This document shows, one piece after another, positions 640 to 41,617 of a stretch of 43,524 nt of DNA (positions within the stretch are counted from its first letter, which is position 1; the number at the start of each line of letters is the position of its first letter). A program made the position numbers and the translations under genes. The notes below the pieces were generated by a model. That model did not search any database. It worked only from the letters and a program-made list of their open reading frames with translations, and was not told where the DNA came from. This DNA is from a virus (Duplodnaviria > Heunggongvirae > Uroviricota > Caudoviricetes), in the IMG/VR virus record IMGVR_UViG_2531839666_000032; one strand, written 5' to 3'.

Positions 640-3600
640 TATGCAAGCCTCACAATATAGTTAAATGCGATGTTTTTGACAGTGTTTTCCGCGTTACCAG
701 CAGCGTTAACGGTGATGGTGTGTCCATGTGAGCCAATCGCAACCGAGTGCGTATGAGCACCAATACCGACAGTATGTGCGTGTGCACCTGCAGATGCAGC
801 GGTGCCGCTGACACTATGAGTGTGCGCTCCTGCAGCACTTGTATTCACACTGGCCGCAGACACTACCTTATGTACTGACCCATTTTGTGACCACTGGCTG
901 ACTGCTGATGCGCCTGTGACACTATGAGTATGGTTTCCGGCACTTGCGGCTGTACCGCTCACACTGTGCGTATGCGCCCCGGTGTTATTCGTGGATTTAG
1001 TGCCGTAATCAAACGACGATGTGGTTTTCGTCCCCAAATCCGTACTGGATGCGCTGGCGCTGTGGGTGTGCGATTTAATGCCGTCCTGTTCCTGAGACAA
1101 TACGGCCCGACCACTGGCAGGTTTGCCCTTAATCGTCCAGCTACGCATATCAGGGATCAGGCCTGACGGATAAGCGGCTGCAAGTTTCGGGTATGCAGAT
1201 TTGTCAAAAGTCTGCCCCTGCATCAGGGCATAACCAGACGGAACGGTATCTGATGGCCACGGGATTGGTGCACCGACTGGATAAAACTCTGCAGGAGGAT
1301 GAGCCGAGGTGTAAAGCTGCGCCCACGGCGACCAGTTTGCGTCGGTCGTATCCCGTCGTGAACGAATAAATGCCGGAGCATGAGCACCGCTTGTACCACT
1401 CCAGCCGATGAGTAACTCACCTTCGCCAACGGCTGTCATCCCTTTCAGGTGAATGATATTTCCATACGTTGTTGGATATCCGTTGTTATACACCTCGTAT
1501 AACTCAAGACCTGCTGCCCCCTGCGTATTGTCTGTCAGCGCGGCTACCCGACCTTTTGAAGCCAGATTAACTGATGATACTGCTGTTCCACCTGACGGTA
1601 GCGCCCCGATCTCTGATGCCGTTGGCTTATTTCTGGAGTTATAGTCCCTTCGCCAGCCAGGTGAATAATCTGTTCCGTGATTAATATAGGTAAACAGGGC
1701 GTTGGTTGTTCCGCCACCGCTGGATGTGGTCGGAGTGGTAATGCGGATCGTCATCGCTGACTTTATCCCCATTACTTCAATGACAGCTCCGGCGAGATGA
1801 ATATTACCGCAGCCAGTATCAGTAATGATTTTATTATTGCCATAAGACCAGGAACCCTTGCACATCCAGTATGGATGGTTAAATGCTCCCTGAGAATCCA
1901 GCCACTCGATAAACTGTGCAGTCGTCCAGTTTCCTGTTGTTGTGCTTACTGACCCACCGAAGGCACGGCAGGCACCAATATTTTTCGTAAAGGTGTCTTT
2001 GCCAGGGATATCCGCACCGTTCTGATCTTTCTGCAGACGTTTCTCAGCATTGTCATTGGCTGCTTTTACTGCCTTTGGCGTTGCCGCCAGCGTTTCAGAC
2101 GTGCTGTTGGTCGTGCTGCTTAGTTGGACTATCCCTTTCTGTGCTGTCGTTGCATCCTGTGCTGTGTATTTCCCGTTAGCCAGGTCATACGCGGCCTTAA
2201 CTGCTTTTGGCGTTGCCGCCAGTGACTCGGAAGTGCTGTTGGTCGCACTGCTGAGCTGTACTATCCCCTTTTTCGTCGTGCTCGCATCCTCAAGCGCCAC
2301 GGCGGATGCAATATCCTCTGCCCGTTTTGCCGCTGTCTCAGCGCGCGTTGCTGCAGATTCCGCCGTACTTTTGCTCTGAGCTGCTGCCGTCGCACTACCA
2401 GCTGCCTCTGTCGCCTTTGTGGATGCCGTCGTGGCGCTGCCCTTCGCTGCTGACGCCTGTCTGGTCGCCTCATCTTTTGAAGCAGACGCCGATGATGCCG
2501 ATGACGCCGCCGAACTGGCGGACGATGCCGCTGCCGTTTTTGAGGATTCTGCACGGGTTTCCGACGCTTTCGCGTTCGTTTCGGATGTCTTCGCTGCGGA
2601 AGCTGACCTCGCTGCTGCCGTGGCCTGCTCAGTGGCTTCGCCAGCCTTCGTTGTGGCTGTTGAAGCGGATGATGCGGCGCTTTCTGCCGATTTTCCGGCG
2701 GCGGTGGCACTGGCTGAGGCCTGCCCGGCACTTGTTGACGCGGCACTGGCAGACGACGCAGCCGCTGTTTTTGAGCCTGCCGCAGCTGAGGCGCTCTGTC
2801 CCGCTGCCGTCTCAGAAGACCTGGCGTTCGTCTCGGACGTTTTTGCCGCCTTCGCGGAATTTCCTGCCGCCGTTGCCGAGGAAGCTGCGCTACTGGCGCT
2901 CAAGGATGCGTTCGTTTCTGATGATTTCGCTGCCTCTTTTGAGGCCGCCGCATCCCGGGCTGAGGTGGCAGCTTCTGACGCTTTCGTGATCGCGGTGGAT
3001 GCAGAAGTGGCGGCTGATTGTTCTGACGCTGCGGCATTCGTTTCTGACGTTTTCGCCGCACCGGCACTGGTAGCTGCCACGCTTTTTGAGGACTCTGCAG
3101 CGGCAGCACTTTTTGAGGCTTCAGTGGCCTTTGTTGATGCCGTTCCTGCGCTGGAAGACGCTGACTGAGCCGACGAAGCGGCCTGTCCGGCTGACGTGCT
3201 GGCTGCACGTGCTGAATCTGCAGCATCAGTCGCATGGGTTGCCGCCTCACGGGCAGATGTGCCGGCATCACTGGCTGACTTCTTCGCGGCTGCCGTGTTC
3301 TGTGCCACCACGGACGCGTTACGCGCTACCTCTTCCACCATCAGTTCAAAACGGCGCAGTGCCTCAGGACGGGCATCATCCTCCGTCATGGCACCGAGAA
3401 AATCATTCAGCGTACCGGGTCGGGAATCTTCATACACGGTGATGGTCCCGGCATGTGACGGCGGGAATCCTTCCACCAACAGAATAACGCTGTACTGACC
3501 GTACTCAACGTCCATGCTGTAACGCCCGGCTTCATCCGGATTTTCTGAGGCCAGCGTGTTCACCACCACCGTGGTGCTGTTACGTTTTGCTTTCAGCTGG

Positions 3601-3671
3601 ATTGTGCAGTTCTGTACCGGTTTTCCTGTGCCGTCTTTCAGTACACCTGAAATCTTTACTGCCATATTCAC
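639..3671 (-). CDS. stf: Side tail fiber protein Stf (1010 aa) with a long Ala/Ser/Thr-rich repetitive shaft and His-x-His repeats at the C-terminus
   Basis: N-terminus [29 protein letters not shown] and C-terminus [16 protein letters not shown] match lambda Stf; [24 protein letters not shown] motif occurs twice; GAHTHSV repeats. Confidence 0.9.
2050..3300. repeat. Low-complexity degenerate tandem repeats encoding the Stf shaft
   Basis: Recurrent GCNGCNTCNGANGC-type units; spurious long ORFs appear in several frames on the opposite strand. Confidence 0.6.
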
Positions 3672-3729
3672 CCCACAAAAAAGCCCGCCTGAACCGGCGG
3701 GCTGTCATAACACTGTGTTACCTGGCTAA

Positions 3730-4329
3730 TCAGAACTTATAACCGACACCCATGATGAAACCGTCAGTGCGCCAGTCGCCACTGCCGGAGCCTTCATAAG
3801 CAATATCAATGGCCACGGATTCGGTCGGGTTAAACTGCACGCCAGCTCCCCACGCCAGAGACGTGTTGCTGTGGCGACCGTCATCACTTCCGGTCAGCAC
3901 GTCGTGCGTTTTCCCCTTGTTGTCAGTTACGCGGAGATAATCCCCGGAGAAAGTCGACACACGGCTGTAAGCCACACCCGCCATCGCATACGCGCTGAAC
4001 CATTCATTCACGCGCACAGACGGCCCCACCATCACGCTGAACCAGCGGTTACGAACGGAATCTTCATGCCAGCGGGTATCGCTGTAACGGGTCAGCTGGC
4101 GATTCTTGTCTCCTGCATAGCTGAATGACGTCACCAGCCCCAGTGTGTCCGTAAACTCATAACGGTATTTCACGTTAATCCCGTTCAGATCATCGCTGCC
4201 GGGAACGTTCGTCGAGGCATGAAGATACCCCGCGCTCAGCGTGGACTGATGTTCAGACGCCCATGCAGGCGCACCGGATACGGCCAGACAAATGGCTGCG
4301 GACAAAATGGCGGCATAAAGTTTACGCAT
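3730..4329 (-). CDS. lom: Outer membrane beta-barrel protein of the Lom/Ail/PagC family
   Basis: 199 aa, signal peptide MRKLYAAILSAAICLAVSGAPAWA, C-terminal YEGSGSGDWRTDGFIMGVGYKF; sits between J and stf as in lambda but is divergent from lambda Lom in the N-terminal two thirds. Confidence 0.85.
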   Translation of the reverse strand: MRKLYAAILSAAICLAVSGAPAWASEHQSTLSAGYLHASTNVPGSDDLNGINVKYRYEFTDTLGLVTSFSYAGDKNRQLTRYSDTRWHEDSVRNRWFSVMVGPSVRVNEWFSAYAMAGVAYSRVSTFSGDYLRVTDNKGKTHDVLTGSDDGRHSNTSLAWGAGVQFNPTESVAIDIAYEGSGSGDWRTDGFIMGVGYKF

Positions 4330-29523: not shown

Positions 29524-30423
29524 TCAGGCTGCCAGACCACCATTTCCGATGGAAGCGTAATATGCCTTTTCCGCTTCTGCCGGCGGGATATGACCCAGTC
29601 GTTCCAGCAACCGTCGGTTATTGTACCAGTCCACCCACGTCAGTGTGGCCAGTTCCACTTCGGCGCGGTTTTTCCAGCTCTTACGATGTATCACCTCCGC
29701 TTTATAAAGTCCGTTGATGCTCTCCGCCATCGCGTTGTCATATGAGTCGCCTGTGCTGCCGGTTGACGCCAGCAACTCTGCATCCTTAAGCCGCTGAGTG
29801 TATGCCAGCGACACATATTGTGACCCCTTATCTGAGTGATGGATGGTGCCCGACGGGCGACGGGCCCACAGCGCCTGCTCCAGTGCATCCAGCACGAACG
29901 TCGTTTTCATCGACGATGAGACCCGCCAGCCCACAATGACGCCGGCGAACACATCGATGATGAACGCCACGTAAGCGAAGCCCTGCCAGGTGCTCACATA
30001 CGTGAAGTCAGCCACCCACAGCTGGTCGGGGCGTTCTGCCACGAACTGGCGGTTCACCCGGTCACCCGCAGCGGCTTCTTTCCGGCTGACTGTGGTGCGG
30101 ACCTTTTTACCCCGGCGCACACCGGCAAGCCCCATCACCTTCATCAGCCGTTCTACTGTGCACCTGGCCACGGTCACCCCCTCACGCAACAACTGGCGCC
30201 AGACCTTGCGCACACCGTACACGCTGTGGTTTTCATCGTACACGCGCTGTATCTCCGGCTTCAGCAGGTCATCACGCTGTGCCCGCTGACTGCGTTTATC
30301 CGGATGCCGTTGATGCGCACGATGCCGGTAATACGTTGACGGGGCGACAGCCAGCTCGTGGCATACCGGTCCGACCCCGTGCGCACCACGCAGGGTATCC
30401 ACCAGAGGCGCTATTTTTTCCAC
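29524..30423 (-). CDS. IS629 OrfB, DDE integrase-type transposase catalytic subunit
   Basis: 299-aa ORF, ...[34 protein letters not shown]...[10 protein letters not shown]...; overlaps orfA in the -1 frame, consistent with the IS3-family frameshift. Confidence 0.9.
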
Positions 30424-30737
30424 AGGCGGTCGAACTCCGCCTTCGCAAAATACGCGGAAGCCTGGCGCAGGATATCGTTGCTGCGGCGCAGTTCGCGGTT
30501 TTCACGCTCCAGTTCCTTCAGACGCTGACGTTCAGTGGTGCTCAGTCCGCCGTCACCTGCACCGGCATCGCGCTCATACTGACGCAGCCAGGTACGCAGG
30601 GTCTCAGGCGTACAGCCGATTTTAGGGGCGATGGAGCTGATGGCCGCCCACTGCGAGTCATAGTCATTCTGGCTTTCGATAACCATACGAACGGCCCGCT
30701 GACGGACCTCAGGGGAAAAGCGCGTATTTTTAGTCAT
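30411..30737 (-). CDS. IS629 OrfA, helix-turn-helix transposase subunit
   Basis: 108 aa [64 protein letters not shown]...[36 protein letters not shown]. Confidence 0.9.
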
Positions 30738-30794
30738 CCTGTTTACCTCTCTCTCAAGGAGTTTAGTCTCCAGGATTCCCGGGGCGATTCAGTT

Positions 30795-31151
30795 TTAATT
30801 GTGCTTTATTCCTTCAAGCGTTGCCTTCATACCAACCAAAGAAATGTTTAGCTCTCCAACTTTCTCAGGGCTATATAATTCAGAATGAAGCCAATATTCT
30901 GATTTATCTAAACATCTTTTAGCCAGCTCTCGATCAAAGTCTACGACTTGGGAAGACGCTTCATACCAAAGCCTATAAAGTTTTTCTTCTTCGTTTGGGT
31001 TATTAGGCTCACCACGTTTTAATTTTTCAGTATATAAAATTGTTGAACAAATCGCAGGAGTTAATCCAGTGATTGCCCTCTGCCGCAGATCGGATTTGTT
31101 TGTTATCCACCCCAACAGACGATCTCCCATCCATGTGATAATTGTATCCAT
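30795..31151 (-). CDS. Hypothetical protein (118 aa), AT-rich cargo gene
   Basis: ORF MDTIITWMGDRLLGWITNKSDLRQRAITGLTPAICSTILYTEKLKRGEPNNPNEEEKLYRLWYEAS with AAGAAGGG Shine-Dalgarno; no family recognised; stop codon is 3 bp from the IS629 end. Confidence 0.55.
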   Translation of the reverse strand: MDTIITWMGDRLLGWITNKSDLRQRAITGLTPAICSTILYTEKLKRGEPNNPNEEEKLYRLWYEASSQVVDFDRELAKRCLDKSEYWLHSELYSPEKVGELNISLVGMKATLEGIKHN

Positions 31152-36157: not shown

Positions 36158-36243
36158 AATTCCTCCCGCAATGAGTGTGTTACGATTTGCACCTGAAAGT
36201 CGGTTCTGTTCCAGCAGACCGGCTTTCGCCATTTCTGAACCTG

Positions 36244-36783
36244 TCATATCGCCCCCAGCATGGTAGTAACCATCGCCATCAATGGACCAGCCAGATCTGG
36301 GTCCACACGAAACATCGACACAATACCTTCACTAATTTCCTTCAGTTTCTGGTGGCGTGGTGCGTTGAGAATGACAGCCTGTTTTGCCTCACTGAGTTCC
36401 TTTTCCATTTCAGCCAACCTAGCCATGAAGCTATCCTGCTCAACCAGGTAACCGCGATATTCCAGCGGTAGTACCGCCAGAATTGCCGGGGTCAGTTCAC
36501 GCACGTTATTTCGGTATTTTTCAGAATCGAATTTGTTATCGAGGAAGCGGAACAGCTTCTGGCGTGCACGGCTGACATCATCAGGGAAATCGATGGTGCC
36601 GCCGCCCTGCTCCCGATACTCATTCACAATGAGTGTGGCAACGACATCCTGATTATCTACAGCCGACCAGGCGCGGACGGCATCACGGATTTTTTCGTGG
36701 CCTGGCACCTGTTTTGTTTGAGAACGATTTATCACCGCAGTCGGGCTAAATCCGCTAGTCTGTTGGTATGTAAGTGGTTGCAT
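36244..36783 (-). CDS. CII-like lysogeny regulator (CP76-type), putative
   Basis: 179-aa ORF MQPLTYQQTSGFSPTAVINRSQTKQVPGHEKIRDAVRAWSA between cro and O; family assignment is from memory and weak. Confidence 0.5.
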   Translation of the reverse strand: MQPLTYQQTSGFSPTAVINRSQTKQVPGHEKIRDAVRAWSAVDNQDVVATLIVNEYREQGGGTIDFPDDVSRARQKLFRFLDNKFDSEKYRNNVRELTPAILAVLPLEYRGYLVEQDSFMARLAEMEKELSEAKQAVILNAPRHQKLKEISEGIVSMFRVDPDLAGPLMAMVTTMLGAI

Positions 36784-36852
36784 AATTGACTCCTTTAGTT
36801 TGAATTGACTGTTAAGTTGATTGCTTATTGTTAAAGAGCGTGAAATGGAAAT

Positions 36853-37083
36853 TTAAGCTGCGTTCTTTTCGGTGTGTGGAAACAACTTCGGAAGATCCGG
36901 GCGAATCTGGTATGCCTTCACTACTCCACCAGTAGCCGTAACAATGCTGCCGACATGTTCAGGGGATACCTTTGCTTTGTTGTGAAGCCACTTATAGACG
37001 GCCTGCTGTGAAACTTCGCAAGCAGCGCCCAGTTTCTTTTGTGAACCAACGATATTGATCGCTGTTTTGATAGCTGGGTTCAT
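36853..37083 (-). CDS. cro: Cro-like helix-turn-helix repressor
   Basis: 76 aa MNPAIKTAINIVGSQKKLGAACEVSQQAVYKWLHNKAKVSPEHVGSIVTATGGVVKAYQIRPDLP, divergent from cI; GGAGG Shine-Dalgarno. Confidence 0.8.
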   Translation of the reverse strand: MNPAIKTAINIVGSQKKLGAACEVSQQAVYKWLHNKAKVSPEHVGSIVTATGGVVKAYQIRPDLPKLFPHTEKNAA

Positions 37084-37187
37084 AACAACCTCCGTGGTTA
37101 ATTTGAATCAAGATTAAAACTATGGTTGTTTTTAGTCAACAACCATTTTCGTTTGATGAAATAAAACCTTGGTTGTACATTTGGACT
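37084..37187. promoter_or_regulatory. Immunity control region oR with divergent promoters: candidate pR (-35 TTGACT 37134-37139, -10 TAATCT 37111-37116, minus strand) and pRM (-35 TTGATG 37153-37158, -10 TACATT 37176-37181, plus strand), plus operator palindrome ATGGTTGTT-N7-AACAACCAT at 37122-37146
   Basis: Hexamers with 17-nt spacers and ACAAC/GTTGT half-sites read directly; pRM would give a leaderless cI mRNA as in lambda. Confidence 0.45.
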
Positions 37188-37877
37188 ATGAAAACAACAC
37201 TCTCAGAAAGACTTAAAGAAGCCAGATTAGCGCGAGGCCTTACACAAAAGGCGCTTGGGGATTTGGTCGGGGTTAGCCAGGCTGCTATTCAGAAAATCGA
37301 AACAGGGAAAGCTAATCAAACAACTAAAATCGTGGAGATCGCGAACGCTTTGGGTGTGCGCGCAGAATGGTTATCTTCTGGCGTTGGAAATATGTCAGAC
37401 AGTACAGTGCAACCAATACAATCAACTGTCAGCCATTCCAAATACTTCAAGATTGACGTTCTTGATATAGAAGTCAGTGCTGGGCCGGGAGTCATCAACC
37501 GTGAGTTTGTAGAAGTTCTACGCTCGGTTGAGTACTCGTTTGACGATGCTCGTCACATGTTCGATGGTAGGAAGGCGGAAAATATCCGCATCATTAACGT
37601 GCGTGGTGACAGCATGTCAGGAACGATCGAACCAGGTGATCTGCTGTTCGTTGATATCACAGTTAAATCTTTCGACGGTGATGGTATCTATGCGTTTCTG
37701 TACGACGACACAGCCCATGTAAAGCGCCTGCAAATGATGAAGGATAAGCTGCTGGTCATCTCTGATAACAAAAGCTACTCACCGTGGGACCCGATCGAGA
37801 AAGACGAGATGAACCGGGTGTTCATCTTCGGTAAGGTTATTGGGAGCATGCCGCAGACATATAGGAAGCATGGGTAG
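37188..37877 (+). CDS. cI: CI-type prophage repressor (N-terminal HTH, C-terminal LexA-like S24 autopeptidase domain)
   Basis: 229 aa from MKTTLSERLKEARLARGLTQKALGDLVGVSQAAIQKIETGKANQTTKIVEIANALGVRAEWL; C-terminal ...VRGDSMSGTIEPGDLLFVD...HVKRL; the ORF track extends 22 codons upstream across the operator. Confidence 0.85.
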   Translation: MKTTLSERLKEARLARGLTQKALGDLVGVSQAAIQKIETGKANQTTKIVEIANALGVRAEWLSSGVGNMSDSTVQPIQSTVSHSKYFKIDVLDIEVSAGPGVINREFVEVLRSVEYSFDDARHMFDGRKAENIRIINVRGDSMSGTIEPGDLLFVDITVKSFDGDGIYAFLYDDTAHVKRLQMMKDKLLVISDNKSYSPWDPIEKDEMNRVFIFGKVIGSMPQTYRKHG

Positions 37878-37998
37878 TACCAATTAAAAATTATCAACTG
37901 GGCATTGTGCTCATTCAGTAAAGAACTAATTCCTATCTTTGCTCTAGGTAGTAATATTAAGCCACCGCAATAATATCTTTACCTAACGGCGTAAGAAT

Positions 37999-38025
37999 CC
38001 CGGTCACCGTGCCGGGTTTTCTTTT
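37999..38025 (+). terminator. Rho-independent terminator after cI
   Basis: CCCGG-TCACCGTG-CCGGG hairpin followed by TTTTCTTTT. Confidence 0.6.
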
Positions 38026-38119
38026 GCCCTCCCCTCATCACACACACCGTTAAAAAAACCACCATAACCTCGCTTCAGTTATCGCTATGCGATTCAAGTC
38101 ACAAAATAAATCCATCCTA

Positions 38120-38196
38120 AATACAACCAGTTATATCTAAAACAACCAATAAAACAACTTTTGTTGTTGACGATAAAACAACTATAGTTTTAAATA
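38120..38196 (+). promoter_or_regulatory. oL/pL candidate: -35 TTGACG 38167-38172, -10 TTAAAT 38190-38195, overlapped by operator palindrome AACAAC-TTTT-GTTGTT at 38153-38168 and further AACAAC half-sites
   Basis: Read directly; same half-site family as in oR. Confidence 0.4.
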
Positions 38197-38388
38197 AGTT
38201 CATCGCAACAACACAACGATACGGCAACTACCTGATTCACCGTTGCGATGACCGCTTAGATCCGCAGTTTGAATTTCAGCAGGCTTCGGGGAGTGCGAGG
38301 GGTGAAACGGACGCGTGAACGTCGGTGTGACCAGCTGAAATTAACTCAACATTTCATACCTTAGTCGCTTCAACGAGGCGGCTTAGTT

Positions 38389-38679
38389 ATGACAACCGGC
38401 GGCCATCCACCGCCTGAATACGCGCAGAAGTCTCTATATGTTCAGCAGCCCAGCTTACGGGCAGGAGTTTTTATGGTTCATCAACATTATGGAACGCAGA
38501 CCGTTAATCGAGGTGCGGTCATGCCAGGAATGCTGGTCAAACACAAAGATGGTACCTGGACTGCATCAGCTAATTTACGCGGACGGCTTTATCTGCATCG
38601 CGGCATCGAGCGCACTTATACCCGTGATTTGCTCGTGGAAGTTTTTCTCGACGGACGCGGTAACGGCCTGAATCACTAA
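38389..38679 (+). CDS. Hypothetical protein (96 aa), first gene of the pL operon, in the position lambda kil occupies upstream of gam
   Basis: [73 protein letters not shown]; no family recognised; an alternative 77-aa frame overlaps. Confidence 0.4.
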
Positions 38680-38754
38680 TCCCCTTTCCTGTTTTCCTAA
38701 TCAGCCTGGCATTTCGCGGGCGATATTTTCACAGCCATTTTCAGGAGGTCAGCC

Positions 38755-39051
38755 ATGAACGCTTATTACATTCAGGATCGTCTTGAGGCTCAGAGCTGGG
38801 CGCGTCACTACCAGCAGATCGCCCGTGAAGAGAAAGAGGCAGAACTGGCAGACGACATGGAAAAAGGCCTGCCCCAGCACCTGTTTGAATCGCTATGCAT
38901 CGATCATTTGCAACGCCACGGGGCCAGCAAAAAAGCCATTACCCGTGCGTTTGATGACGATGTTGAGTTTCAGGAGCGCATGGCAGAACACATCCAGTAC
39001 ATGGTTGAAACCATTGCTCACCACCAGGTTGATATTGATTCAGAGGTATAA
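38755..39051 (+). CDS. gam: Gam, RecBCD inhibitor
   Basis: 98 aa [98 protein letters not shown]. Confidence 0.95.
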
Positions 39052-40519: not shown

Positions 40520-40677
40520 AGCATCCTCACGATAATATCCGGGTAGGCGCGATCACTTTCATCTACTCCGTTACAAAGCGAGGCTGGGCATTTCCCGGCC
40601 TTTCTGTTATCAGAAATCCACTGAAAGCACAGCGGCTGGCTGAGGCGATAAATAATAAACGGGGGCTGTATGACTGA
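40510..40677 (+). CDS. orf60a-like small protein
   Basis: 55-aa [58 protein letters not shown] found by hand; overlaps the exo stop and the methyltransferase start. Confidence 0.6.
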
Positions 40678-41307: not shown

Positions 41308-41519
41308 CACATCAGCAGGAAAACGCCCTTCGCAGCATTGCCCGTCAGGCTAATTCTGAAATCAAAAAAGCCAGACAGCAGTTTCCGGATAAAAACGTCG
41401 ATGACATTTGCCGTAGCGTACTTAAGAAGCACCGCGAAACGGTAACGCTGATGGGATTCACACCGACTCATTTAAGCCTGGCGATCGGCATGTTAAACGG
41501 CGTCTTTAAGGAACGGTGA
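41304..41519 (+). CDS. Hypothetical protein (71 aa)
   Basis: MTHQQENALRSIARQANSEIKKARQQFPDKNVDDICRSVLKKHRETVTLMGFTPTHLSLAIGMLNGVFKER; followed by a terminator. Confidence 0.5.
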   Translation: MTHQQENALRSIARQANSEIKKARQQFPDKNVDDICRSVLKKHRETVTLMGFTPTHLSLAIGMLNGVFKER

Positions 41520-41540
41520 ACATGAAAAGCAAAATCATCA

Positions 41541-41563
41541 GGGAGCTACAGGCTCCTTTTTTA
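41541..41563 (+). terminator. Rho-independent terminator
   Basis: GGAGC-TACAG-GCTCC hairpin followed by TTTTTT. Confidence 0.55.
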
Positions 41564-41617
41564 TTGTTCGCATTCATCCTCAAGCGTATTAACCAACAAT
41601 TCAGGGATTAATGGAAG

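Follow-up and report, generated by a model that had tools for sequence, protein, structure and literature searches.

The DNA analysed here, which we refer to as the window, is a stretch of 43,524 nucleotides that carries a lambdoid prophage. The plus strand carries cI (37122-37877) and then, in order, the pL region, a small ORF, gam, bet, exo, a methyltransferase gene, a DksA-like gene, and the genes for excisionase and integrase, while the minus strand encodes a YdaS-type cro, a YdaT-type "cII", O, P, ren, emrE, ybcK-ybcO, rusA, and a Q-like antiterminator. By its gene content, which is that of an unbroken K-12 DLP12, the prophage reads as an intact DLP12-like lambdoid phage. The interval of interest lies between the cI stop codon (37877) and the first ATG-initiated ORF of the pL operon (38389). 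It measures 511 bp, in agreement with the value of about 510 bp given in an earlier, sequence-only reading of this DNA, and it is 100% identical to the corresponding interval of Escherichia phage PhiR34_1 and 99.8% identical to that of phage Turner. The cI terminator and the oL/pL control region lie in this interval, as do the first ~190 nt of an untranslated leader that extends for ~270 nt when counted to kil proper, and the pL operon that it serves (kil-gam-bet-exo ... xis-int) is N-less.

The cI transcript ends at an intrinsic terminator (37999-38026, plus strand) in which a CCCGGT..CCGGG stem (37999-38016), predicted to contain six pairs of which five are G-C, is followed by a T-run in the tail TTTTCTTTTG. 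The oL operators, palindromes of the AACAAC-N4-GTTGTT type, and pL occupy 38140-38201 on the same strand. We infer pL from hexamers read by eye, a -35 sequence TTGACG (38167-38172) and a -10 sequence TTAAAT (38190-38195) separated by a 17-nt spacer, which the consensus promoter scan did not list, and transcription would then start at about 38202. In alignments with phages of other immunity types, in which the promoter reads TTGATA-17-TATTAT, similarity starts abruptly at 38202, a purine 7 nt past the -10 hexamer. Since this mosaic boundary with the other immunity regions falls at +1, the conserved unit would be the transcript itself. The leader is a conserved, modular non-coding RNA that starts exactly at the transcription start and contains a 5' CA-rich stem-loop, a 71-nt element that we refer to as X, and, around ATG 38389, a two-hairpin module that covaries.

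The operon opens with kil. The 96-aa ORF that opens at ATG 38389 matches the Kil family phrog_294 (E = 1.2e-38, profile positions 4-80 of 83) and the FtsZ inhibitor profile NF008465 (E = 4e-17, positions 1-70 of 73; 61.9 bits, where the cut-off is 92), and its identity to the proteins annotated as Kil in HK225 and S9-5 is 85% and 75%, respectively. The NF008465 match begins at profile position 1 on ORF residue 29, which is an internal, in-frame ATG at 38473 preceded by an AGGAG Shine-Dalgarno sequence (38460-38464), and phages 4A7 and HK225 are annotated with the 68-aa form of the protein. The kil gene probably starts at this internal ATG and encodes a 68-aa KilR/phi80-type FtsZ inhibitor (38473-38679, plus strand). 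KilR of the Rac prophage and phi80 Kil belong to the same family (phrog_294; NF008465), the score below the 92-bit cut-off making the window protein a relative of the K-12 protein and not its equivalog, and the 47-aa Kil of lambda is unrelated to it. The sequence-only reading was right to list N as missing and to place gam-bet-exo after the first ORF, but it also counted kil as absent and described the 96-aa ORF as unknown, and both of these statements are overturned by the Kil matches. The PhiR34_1 record annotates an overlapping wrong-frame ORF in place of kil, and recognition of kil as the first gene of the operon is an annotation correction.

No intrinsic terminator is predicted in this window from pL to the end of exo. 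A terminator-like hairpin with nine pairs (six G-C) and a weak T-tract lies just 3' of exo (40580-40602, plus strand), and a strong intrinsic-terminator-like site, AGGGAGCTACAGGCTCCTT plus TTTTTATTGTT, is found at 41540-41569 (plus strand), within a conserved 31-codon ORF at the boundary between the recombination genes and the dksA-like-xis-int genes. No sigma-70-like promoter is predicted in the window 3' of the 41540 site.

No N, Nun, or other early antiterminator was recognized by Pfam, PHROGs, or NCBIfam among the ORFs of the gap and the pL operon, and the only antiterminator in the window is the Q-like late protein. Searches of the window by tblastn with the N proteins of lambda, P22, and phage 21 and with HK022 Nun returned nothing. 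With phi80 N, the only hit below E = 1 (E = 0.005) lies inside bet and is not credible. ORF list, profile scans, and tblastn thus agree with the sequence-only reading that the gap has no N-like ORF on either strand, nor did profile searches bring up, in the gap or the pL operon, the divergent N homologue that this reading had considered. The gap contains only two ORFs of at least 30 aa, one of 36 aa on the minus strand and a 31-codon ORF with a TTG start (38269-38364, plus strand) that overlaps X and is arginine-rich (..VKRTRERRCDQLK..), a character of this ORF inside the predicted structure that had previously been missed. It might be supposed that this ORF, or the in-frame fusion to kil that it forms in relatives, encodes a short N-like RNA-binding peptide. 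Indeed, the segment ..VKRTRERRCDQLK.. recalls the arginine-rich motif of lambda N, TRRRERRAEKQ, and in most relatives the stop codon TAG at 38362 is CAG, so that the frame runs open into kil and has been mis-annotated as a "Kil" of 126-140 aa with ATC or GTG starts. However, no ribosome-binding site is evident for the TTG, ATC, or GTG starts, the frame is closed by the stop codon in the window and in 12 of 55 variants, about a fifth, and the differences, by a hand count of ~3 synonymous and 6 non-synonymous, have no synonymous bias. In addition, the ORF has no family match in Pfam, PHROGs, or NCBIfam, the leader translation retrieved no N proteins from phages by tblastn, and a boxB-like target site was not found in both operons. 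In view of the non-ATG start, the polymorphic stop, the lack of synonymous bias, and the lack of N-protein likeness we rejected this ORF as a gene and judge it to be non-coding, and we consider an N-like peptide very improbable.

On the pR side, an rrn-type boxA, CGCTCTTTAACAA, is located on the minus strand at 36828-36840, 12 nt past the cro stop codon and in the position of lambda nutR. It contains an exact 12-mer match to the GCTCTTTAACAA consensus (36828-36839), the only one in the window, and matches 12 of the 13 positions of the full rrn boxA consensus, TGCTCTTTAACAA. This boxA is common to 45 related loci, whereas phages with the same pL leader and another immunity type lack it and carry, at the cro stop, a GCCGC-N7-GCGGC hairpin. 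The pR boxA is not followed by a boxB-like hairpin, and in the pL leader nothing resembles a boxA within two mismatches. No convincing intrinsic terminator is predicted on the minus strand from cro to Q, and the right operon therefore plausibly runs without a phage antiterminator. Host Nus factors loaded at boxA possibly help it against Rho, a step that draws on established knowledge of rrn antitermination (see PMC4807359, PMC6614797).

The pL transcript would begin with a 5'-terminal stem-loop (38200-38251, plus strand) in which TCATCGCAAC pairs with GTTGCGATGA around the CA-rich loop CAACAACACAAC, as indicated by a 10-bp inverted repeat and by predicted folds. The first 29 nt of the leader are identical at 24 of 29 positions to the leader 5' of putL in Salmonella phage S9-5, a score that none of 300 shuffles reached, and the 5' leader also resembles those of HK639, CobraSix, and phi80. 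The leaders of the window and of an IMG/VR contig termed L128, to which we return below, both start with AUCG(A/C)AAC. The predicted CA-rich stem-loop is shared with put-type phages. Within it, the sequence AACGAT (38217-38222, about +16 to +21) fits the very loose pattern NANNAT, a -10-like sequence that early in putL has been proposed to cause a sigma-dependent pause (PMC9378689).

At the other end of the leader, a conserved two-hairpin module (38355-38414, plus strand) is made up of CATACC, a hairpin H1 (38363-38371 paired with 38375-38383, loop AAC), the segment TAGTTATGACAAC that includes ATG 38389, and a hairpin H2 (38398-38402 paired with 38410-38414, GGCGG-CCATCCA-CCGCC with the loop CCATCCA), with a further conserved motif, GCGCAGAAGTCT, 3' of H2 at 38422-38433. 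H1 has double-sided changes in six of its nine pairs, with 97% of cells paired and a stem sequence that is wholly different between lineages, and its covariation score of 0.435 compares with 0.161 in shuffles (0/500 reach 0.435) and with values of at most 0.06 when the pairing partners are slid. The segment TAGTTATGACAAC is invariant across lineages. The reading frame past ATG 38389 is not conserved across module-bearing phages, and what is conserved is therefore the RNA rather than a peptide. In HK225, the module upstream of kil is ~95% identical, compared with ~75% for the kil coding sequence. It was found by blastn in phi80, HK639, CobraSix, S9-5, ENT1, and KO-TP1 as well as in HK225 and in other genera, and more than 120 viral contigs were recovered by a pattern search. 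Almost everywhere else, the module is directly 3' of an intrinsic terminator, which is absent in this window. In phi80, this is tL1A, just 3' of the experimentally defined N gene, with the Rho-dependent tL1B annotated ~120 nt further on, and in HK639 the depositors annotated H2 and its T-run as a terminator. A sigma-70 promoter was rejected for the module, as no acceptable hexamers were seen by eye on either strand. Candidate roles are a translation-initiation or RNA-processing operator, or Rho-dependent termination. The H1/H2 module, which has no match in Rfam, represents a covariation-supported RNA motif located beside early terminators in many enterobacterial phages.

H1 sequesters a GAGG 10 nt 5' of ATG 38389 and H2 lies at +10 to +26, a layout typical of translational control, and this bears on a second explanation of the locus, an N-independent early program with no antitermination, in which the leader is an ordinary regulatory 5' UTR. 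Specifically, the 5' stem-loop and X would stabilize the message or tune Rho loading, H1/H2 would govern the initiation of translation both at ATG 38389 and at the toxic kil gene, pL transcripts would end at 40580 or 41540, and xis-int would be expressed otherwise. The most constrained part of the leader, directly 5' of kil at 38415-38472 (nucleotide diversity pi = 0.007 among ~76 loci), also favors such a program. We regard it as a serious possibility, and the evidence on both of its sides is taken up again below together with the terminators.

Between the 5' stem-loop and the H1/H2 module lies an exact 9-bp inverted repeat, AATTTCAGC (38272-38280) with GCTGAAATT (38334-38342), that encloses GACG (38310-38313) and CGTC (38320-38323), just as it had been described, to the coordinate and the letter, in the sequence-only reading. 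These sequences delimit X, a 71-nt candidate cis-acting RNA (38272-38342, plus strand; about +71 to +141 on the inferred pL transcript). It is predicted to fold into a three-way junction in which a closing stem, 38272/3-38280 with 38334-38341/2, surrounds two hairpins, one of them GACG/CGTC. On its own the 9-bp repeat is weak evidence, because 15% of dinucleotide shuffles of the interval contain a perfect repeat of this kind (9 bp or longer, gap of 3-100 nt). The interval has two independent repeats, the second being the 10-bp pair 38200-38209/38242-38251. A 79-nt piece around X has a minimum free energy of -26.4 kcal/mol (z = -2.2, with 6 of 200 shuffles equally stable), the corresponding structure making up 27% of the ensemble, and the fold of the whole leader reaches z = -1.5 only, not better than shuffles.

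Of 5426 complete E. coli genomes, 2210 contain the 157-nt promoter-proximal part of the leader, nearly always with at least 95% identity, and the leader carrying X is unannotated in every one of them. Copies of X occur in E. coli only, and all of them are at least 90-95% identical. Diverged relatives were sought by nhmmer over 1.8 Mb of related loci, which yielded near-identical copies only, and by a species-level genome scan via Kil, which recovered the H1/H2 module and did not find X outside E. coli. Among ~76 loci, pi is 0.029 for X (38272-38342) and 0.022 for 38353-38414, compared with 0.047-0.059 at the third codon positions of kil, gam, bet, and exo in these loci, such that X is about half as diverse as the third positions of its neighboring genes. 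Just 20 variants of X occur among 139 loci, with no deletion variants, and the 33 nt at 38309-38341 are invariant except for position 38314. The few polymorphisms are mostly compatible with the predicted helices. The changes 38278 A>G and 38307 A>G each yield a G-U pair, whereby pairing is kept by a one-sided change. Two of them speak against parts of the fold as drawn: 44 of 55 variants have A-C at 38272/38342, the outermost position of the closing stem, and the change 38286 U>C disrupts the first inner hairpin, CUUCG/CGAGG, unless this hairpin is redrawn. No compensatory, two-sided changes in the pairs of X were found among the variants, because the variation is too low. X looks selected, with a structure that is not provable by covariation.

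These data also bear on the possibility that X is a neutral remnant, a spacer left by a deleted antitermination cassette (put, or N with nut and tL1), the conservation of which reflects the recent spread of one E. coli prophage lineage. The near identity of all copies, their restriction to E. coli, and the lack of covariation in X would all fit this explanation, as would the fact that the terminator that precedes the H1/H2 module in other phages is missing here, which is compatible with a deletion junction near TTTCATACC. On the other hand, a spacer leaves unexplained why X is about half as diverse as third codon positions in the same loci and has 33 consecutive bases nearly invariant, why none of the 139 loci has a deletion, and why the fold is more stable than shuffles. 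With its boundary at +1, no deletions, halved diversity, and a compact fold, X behaves as a selected unit, and we consider a neutral remnant unlikely.

Several known RNAs were compared with the leader. A search of Rfam with gathering thresholds on the whole window, and with E<=10 on 36200-38800, returned nothing in the leader, and no second copy of the leader, operator similarity aside, is present in the pR operon or anywhere in the window. The put RNA acts in cis without protein factors, binds the beta' zinc-binding domain of RNA polymerase, and suppresses pausing and termination (PMC9378689). A set of nine RNAs, the putL sequences of HK022, UPF_BP1, phiEt88, S9-5, CobraSix, HK639, and PdC23 together with two putR sequences, aligns well and with compensatory changes, and its hallmarks are a GAACGGC loop, GCGUCGG, a GGCGGGUUCAGGAUGAACGGCAAU core, and a covarying stem II. 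The covariance model built on this family, run over the whole window with filters off, found no match in the pL or pR leader (best elsewhere, E = 0.19), and put was not found by blastn in either leader. In 14 other loci, true putL sequences received 62-97 bits with this model. Homology of X to the nutL leader of HK225/phi80 or to the third hairpin of HK639 putL was likewise rejected, as the alignments were no better than shuffles. Words common to X and those leaders are GCGAGGGG, CAGCAG, and GAACGG, and the 5' CA-rich start alone beats shuffles. The anti-sRNA AgvB was also considered and rejected because it is encoded in the late region, 3' of pR' (PMC4104026). A 12-nt complementarity of the leader to GcvB is a curiosity only, and RNAduplex with the whole leader and GcvB gave a meaningless full-length duplex. 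The suggestion in the sequence-only reading of an antitermination RNA in the style of HK022 put thus fails as far as family membership is concerned, by both blastn and covariance model, and the structure and covariation comparison that it proposed gave no put match and no covariation in X. What persists is the functional idea, as putL occupies the same slot in the colinear operon of L128, and its other suggestion, an N-independent early program, is equally viable.

The L128 contig carries a putL of 97 bits (E = 3e-23) in the order cI, pL, a ~60-nt 5' leader, putL, 13 nt, the H1/H2 module, a small gene, kil, gamL, bet, and exo. In the window, the order is pL, a ~70-nt homologous 5' leader, X, 13 nt, the module, kil, gam, bet, and exo, and the distance from the start site to the module is ~155 nt, compared with ~137 nt in L128. 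The two operons also have homologous terminator-like hairpins (41540-41558 in the window, 12614-12630 in L128), both ahead of dksA-like, xis, and int, and the 41540-type terminator recurs ~2.8-3.2 kb 3' of X in many X-bearing loci. The position of X at that of putL in a colinear operon with terminators lends positional support to a put-like function. It should be noted that a true putL lies 5' of the module on the same strand in 14 of 100 module-bearing contigs and that in most other put phages the module is 450-1100 nt from putL with genes and terminators between them, which makes the slot argument a soft one, and the adjacency of putL and module in L128 could be a deletion product.

Based on these comparisons, we put forward a hypothetical mechanism in which X is a cis-acting RNA that functionally replaces putL, an assignment that we make tentatively and at somewhat less than an even chance. 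X would not be a diverged member of the put family but an independent, or unrecognizably diverged, solution. We propose that X folds during transcription and stays with the elongating RNA polymerase, and that the polymerase so modified resists downstream terminators. The terminators to be overridden would be the kil-gam hairpin, which has a T-run in some relatives, the 40580 hairpin, and, above all, the 41540 site. By read-through, transcription from pL would extend into xis and int in the absence of N. No RNA of this type would be needed in the pR operon, in which no intrinsic terminators are predicted before Q and the rrn-type boxA after cro could recruit host Nus factors against Rho. The put RNAs are known to override terminators of the kind found in this operon, and the other occupants of the promoter-proximal slot, putL and the nutL-N-tL1A of phi80, are both antitermination devices. 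Against a put-like X we count the lack of a put or Rfam match, of covariation, of diverged relatives, and of a pR counterpart.

The terminators themselves can be read in two ways. With none predicted between pL and the end of exo, antitermination is perhaps not needed for the main early-left genes, and this, together with the equally terminator-free minus strand from cro to Q, a pR operon that evidently works without a phage antiterminator, and the lack of similarity of X to put, is what the N-independent early program has in its favor. That program, however, leaves unexplained both the presence of X in the putL slot of a colinear operon and the retention of a strong terminator ahead of xis-int with no predicted promoter after it, and in some X-type phages a T-run on the kil-gam hairpin makes a better terminator ahead of gam. 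By synteny, a put-like X would be the most likely single mechanism, with the ordinary leader of the N-independent program close behind.

To our knowledge, processive antitermination by RNA alone is so far essentially limited to one family, put. Should the put-like reading hold, X would represent a class of cis-acting antiterminator RNA that modifies the polymerase, has not been recognized before, shows no sequence relation to put, and is present in prophages of ~40% of sequenced E. coli strains. The neighboring H1/H2 module, located after tL1-type terminators in phi80-, put-, and X-type phages, would then be a second undescribed element of the same circuitry, a broader proposal that we consider possible and put forward with more reserve than the put-like function itself. 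For the question of how early operons are controlled in lambdoid phages that have neither N nor put, this leader is a concrete candidate: it is very common, X is in the putL slot, and cultured carriers are at hand in PhiR34_1, Turner, 4A7, and Perceval.

The lambda N-nut system resembles the window in that pL leads into early-left recombination genes and then xis-int and that a boxA lies right after cro, but the window is without N protein, boxB, and a boxA in the pL leader, and its pR-side boxA has the full rrn consensus where that of lambda is a weaker form. Compared with the rrn boxA and its NusB-NusE-SuhB complex, the boxA of the window is in a phage mRNA leader, without the rrn boxB/boxC context, and in one immunity type only. 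With phi80 (GenBank M11919, JX871397), the window shares the CA-rich 5' start, the H1/H2 module, and a downstream Kil of the same family, while a boxA nutL leader containing TGCTTTTTAACAA, a 98-aa N, and tL1A ahead of the module are found in phi80 only and not on the pL side of the window. As for put, X has no sequence or structure homology to it detectable with the covariance model, put being two side-by-side stems and X a predicted three-way junction, and X, which is a candidate in function only, starts ~70 nt past +1 and is without a pR copy. The HK639, CobraSix, and L128 loci have putL only, so putR is not universal. Like X, HK022 put and the putL-like RNAs of HK639, HK75, phiEt88, and CobraSix are non-coding RNAs of ~70 nt that come soon after pL in an N-less lambdoid phage, and the 5' hairpin of HK022 putL is a GACG/CGTC hairpin as in X. 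Finally, in L128, putL is flanked, as X is here, by a homologous 5' leader on one side and the H1/H2 module on the other, and this put phage has the same downstream operon with the same terminator as the window.

The pL leader of the window carries a conserved RNA module (38355-38433) that in order consists of a covarying hairpin (H1), an invariant linker with an ATG, a second hairpin (H2) and the motif GCGCAGAAGTCT, and the same module lies at 3001-3100 in phi80 (L238), 3648-3740 in HK639 (L090), 3001-3100 in HK225 (L096) and 6233-6340 in L128, an IMG/VR contig whose colinear operon has the HK022-type antiterminator RNA putL. Rfam has no entry for the H1/H2 module. Intrinsic terminators stand immediately 5' of it in the early-left operons of phi80-type phages, of phages with put RNA and of those carrying X, the 71-nt predicted folded element of the pL leader.

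Terminator-like hairpins also occur further downstream. One lies between kil and gam (38704-38721; about 362 nt 3' of X in PhiR70_1, L006), and in a few X-type phages, PhiR70_1 among them, it is followed by TTTTTTCA in place of GATATTTTCA, which makes it a proper intrinsic terminator 5' of gam in those phages. A strong one (41540-41558) is enclosed in a 31-codon ORF (MNMKSKIIRELQAPFLLFAFILKRINQQFRD, 41516-41611), and the putL phage L128 keeps both the ORF and the hairpin within it. Where kil itself lies (38473-38679), the deposited PhiR34_1 record has annotated an out-of-frame ORF of 77 aa instead (38438-38671 in the window). Other records have a "Kil" of 126-140 aa with an ATC or GTG start, and these long calls result from the open frame of the leader.

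Near its 5' end the pL transcript has CAACAACACAAC (38206-38217), which over 12 nt is perfectly complementary to the R1 seed (GUUGUGUUGUUG, taken from NC_000913.3) of GcvB, an sRNA of the host; the pairing reaches 14 nt if flanking G-U pairs are counted. The segment may act as a target or a sponge for GcvB, or it may be just a CA-rich, rut-like stretch. The cI-pL spacer (37878-38140) is a cargo slot, which in relatives (L001, L004-L008) holds a GevT/GevA toxin-antitoxin pair, a lipoprotein, an ASCH-domain protein or membrane proteins and in the window has no insert. Elsewhere, the pR operon has an IS3-family insertion in its ybcL/ybcM region (29524-30851); the element has the operon's own orientation and contains an ALIL frameshift pseudoknot (RF01497, 30340-30456). 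An IS009 RNA (RF02111) matches at 98-296.

On the pR side, this N-less phage has an exact rrn-type boxA, CGCTCTTTAACAA, on the minus strand at 36828-36840, 12 nt past the cro stop, whereas phi80-type pL leaders read TGCTTTTTAACAA instead. HK225 (L096, 1745-2037) has a pL leader of the phi80 nutL type, and this boxA-like sequence is common to HK225 and phi80; the two differ in the first gene, which in HK225 encodes a 70-aa protein (phrog_5305, unknown function) that replaces phi80 N.
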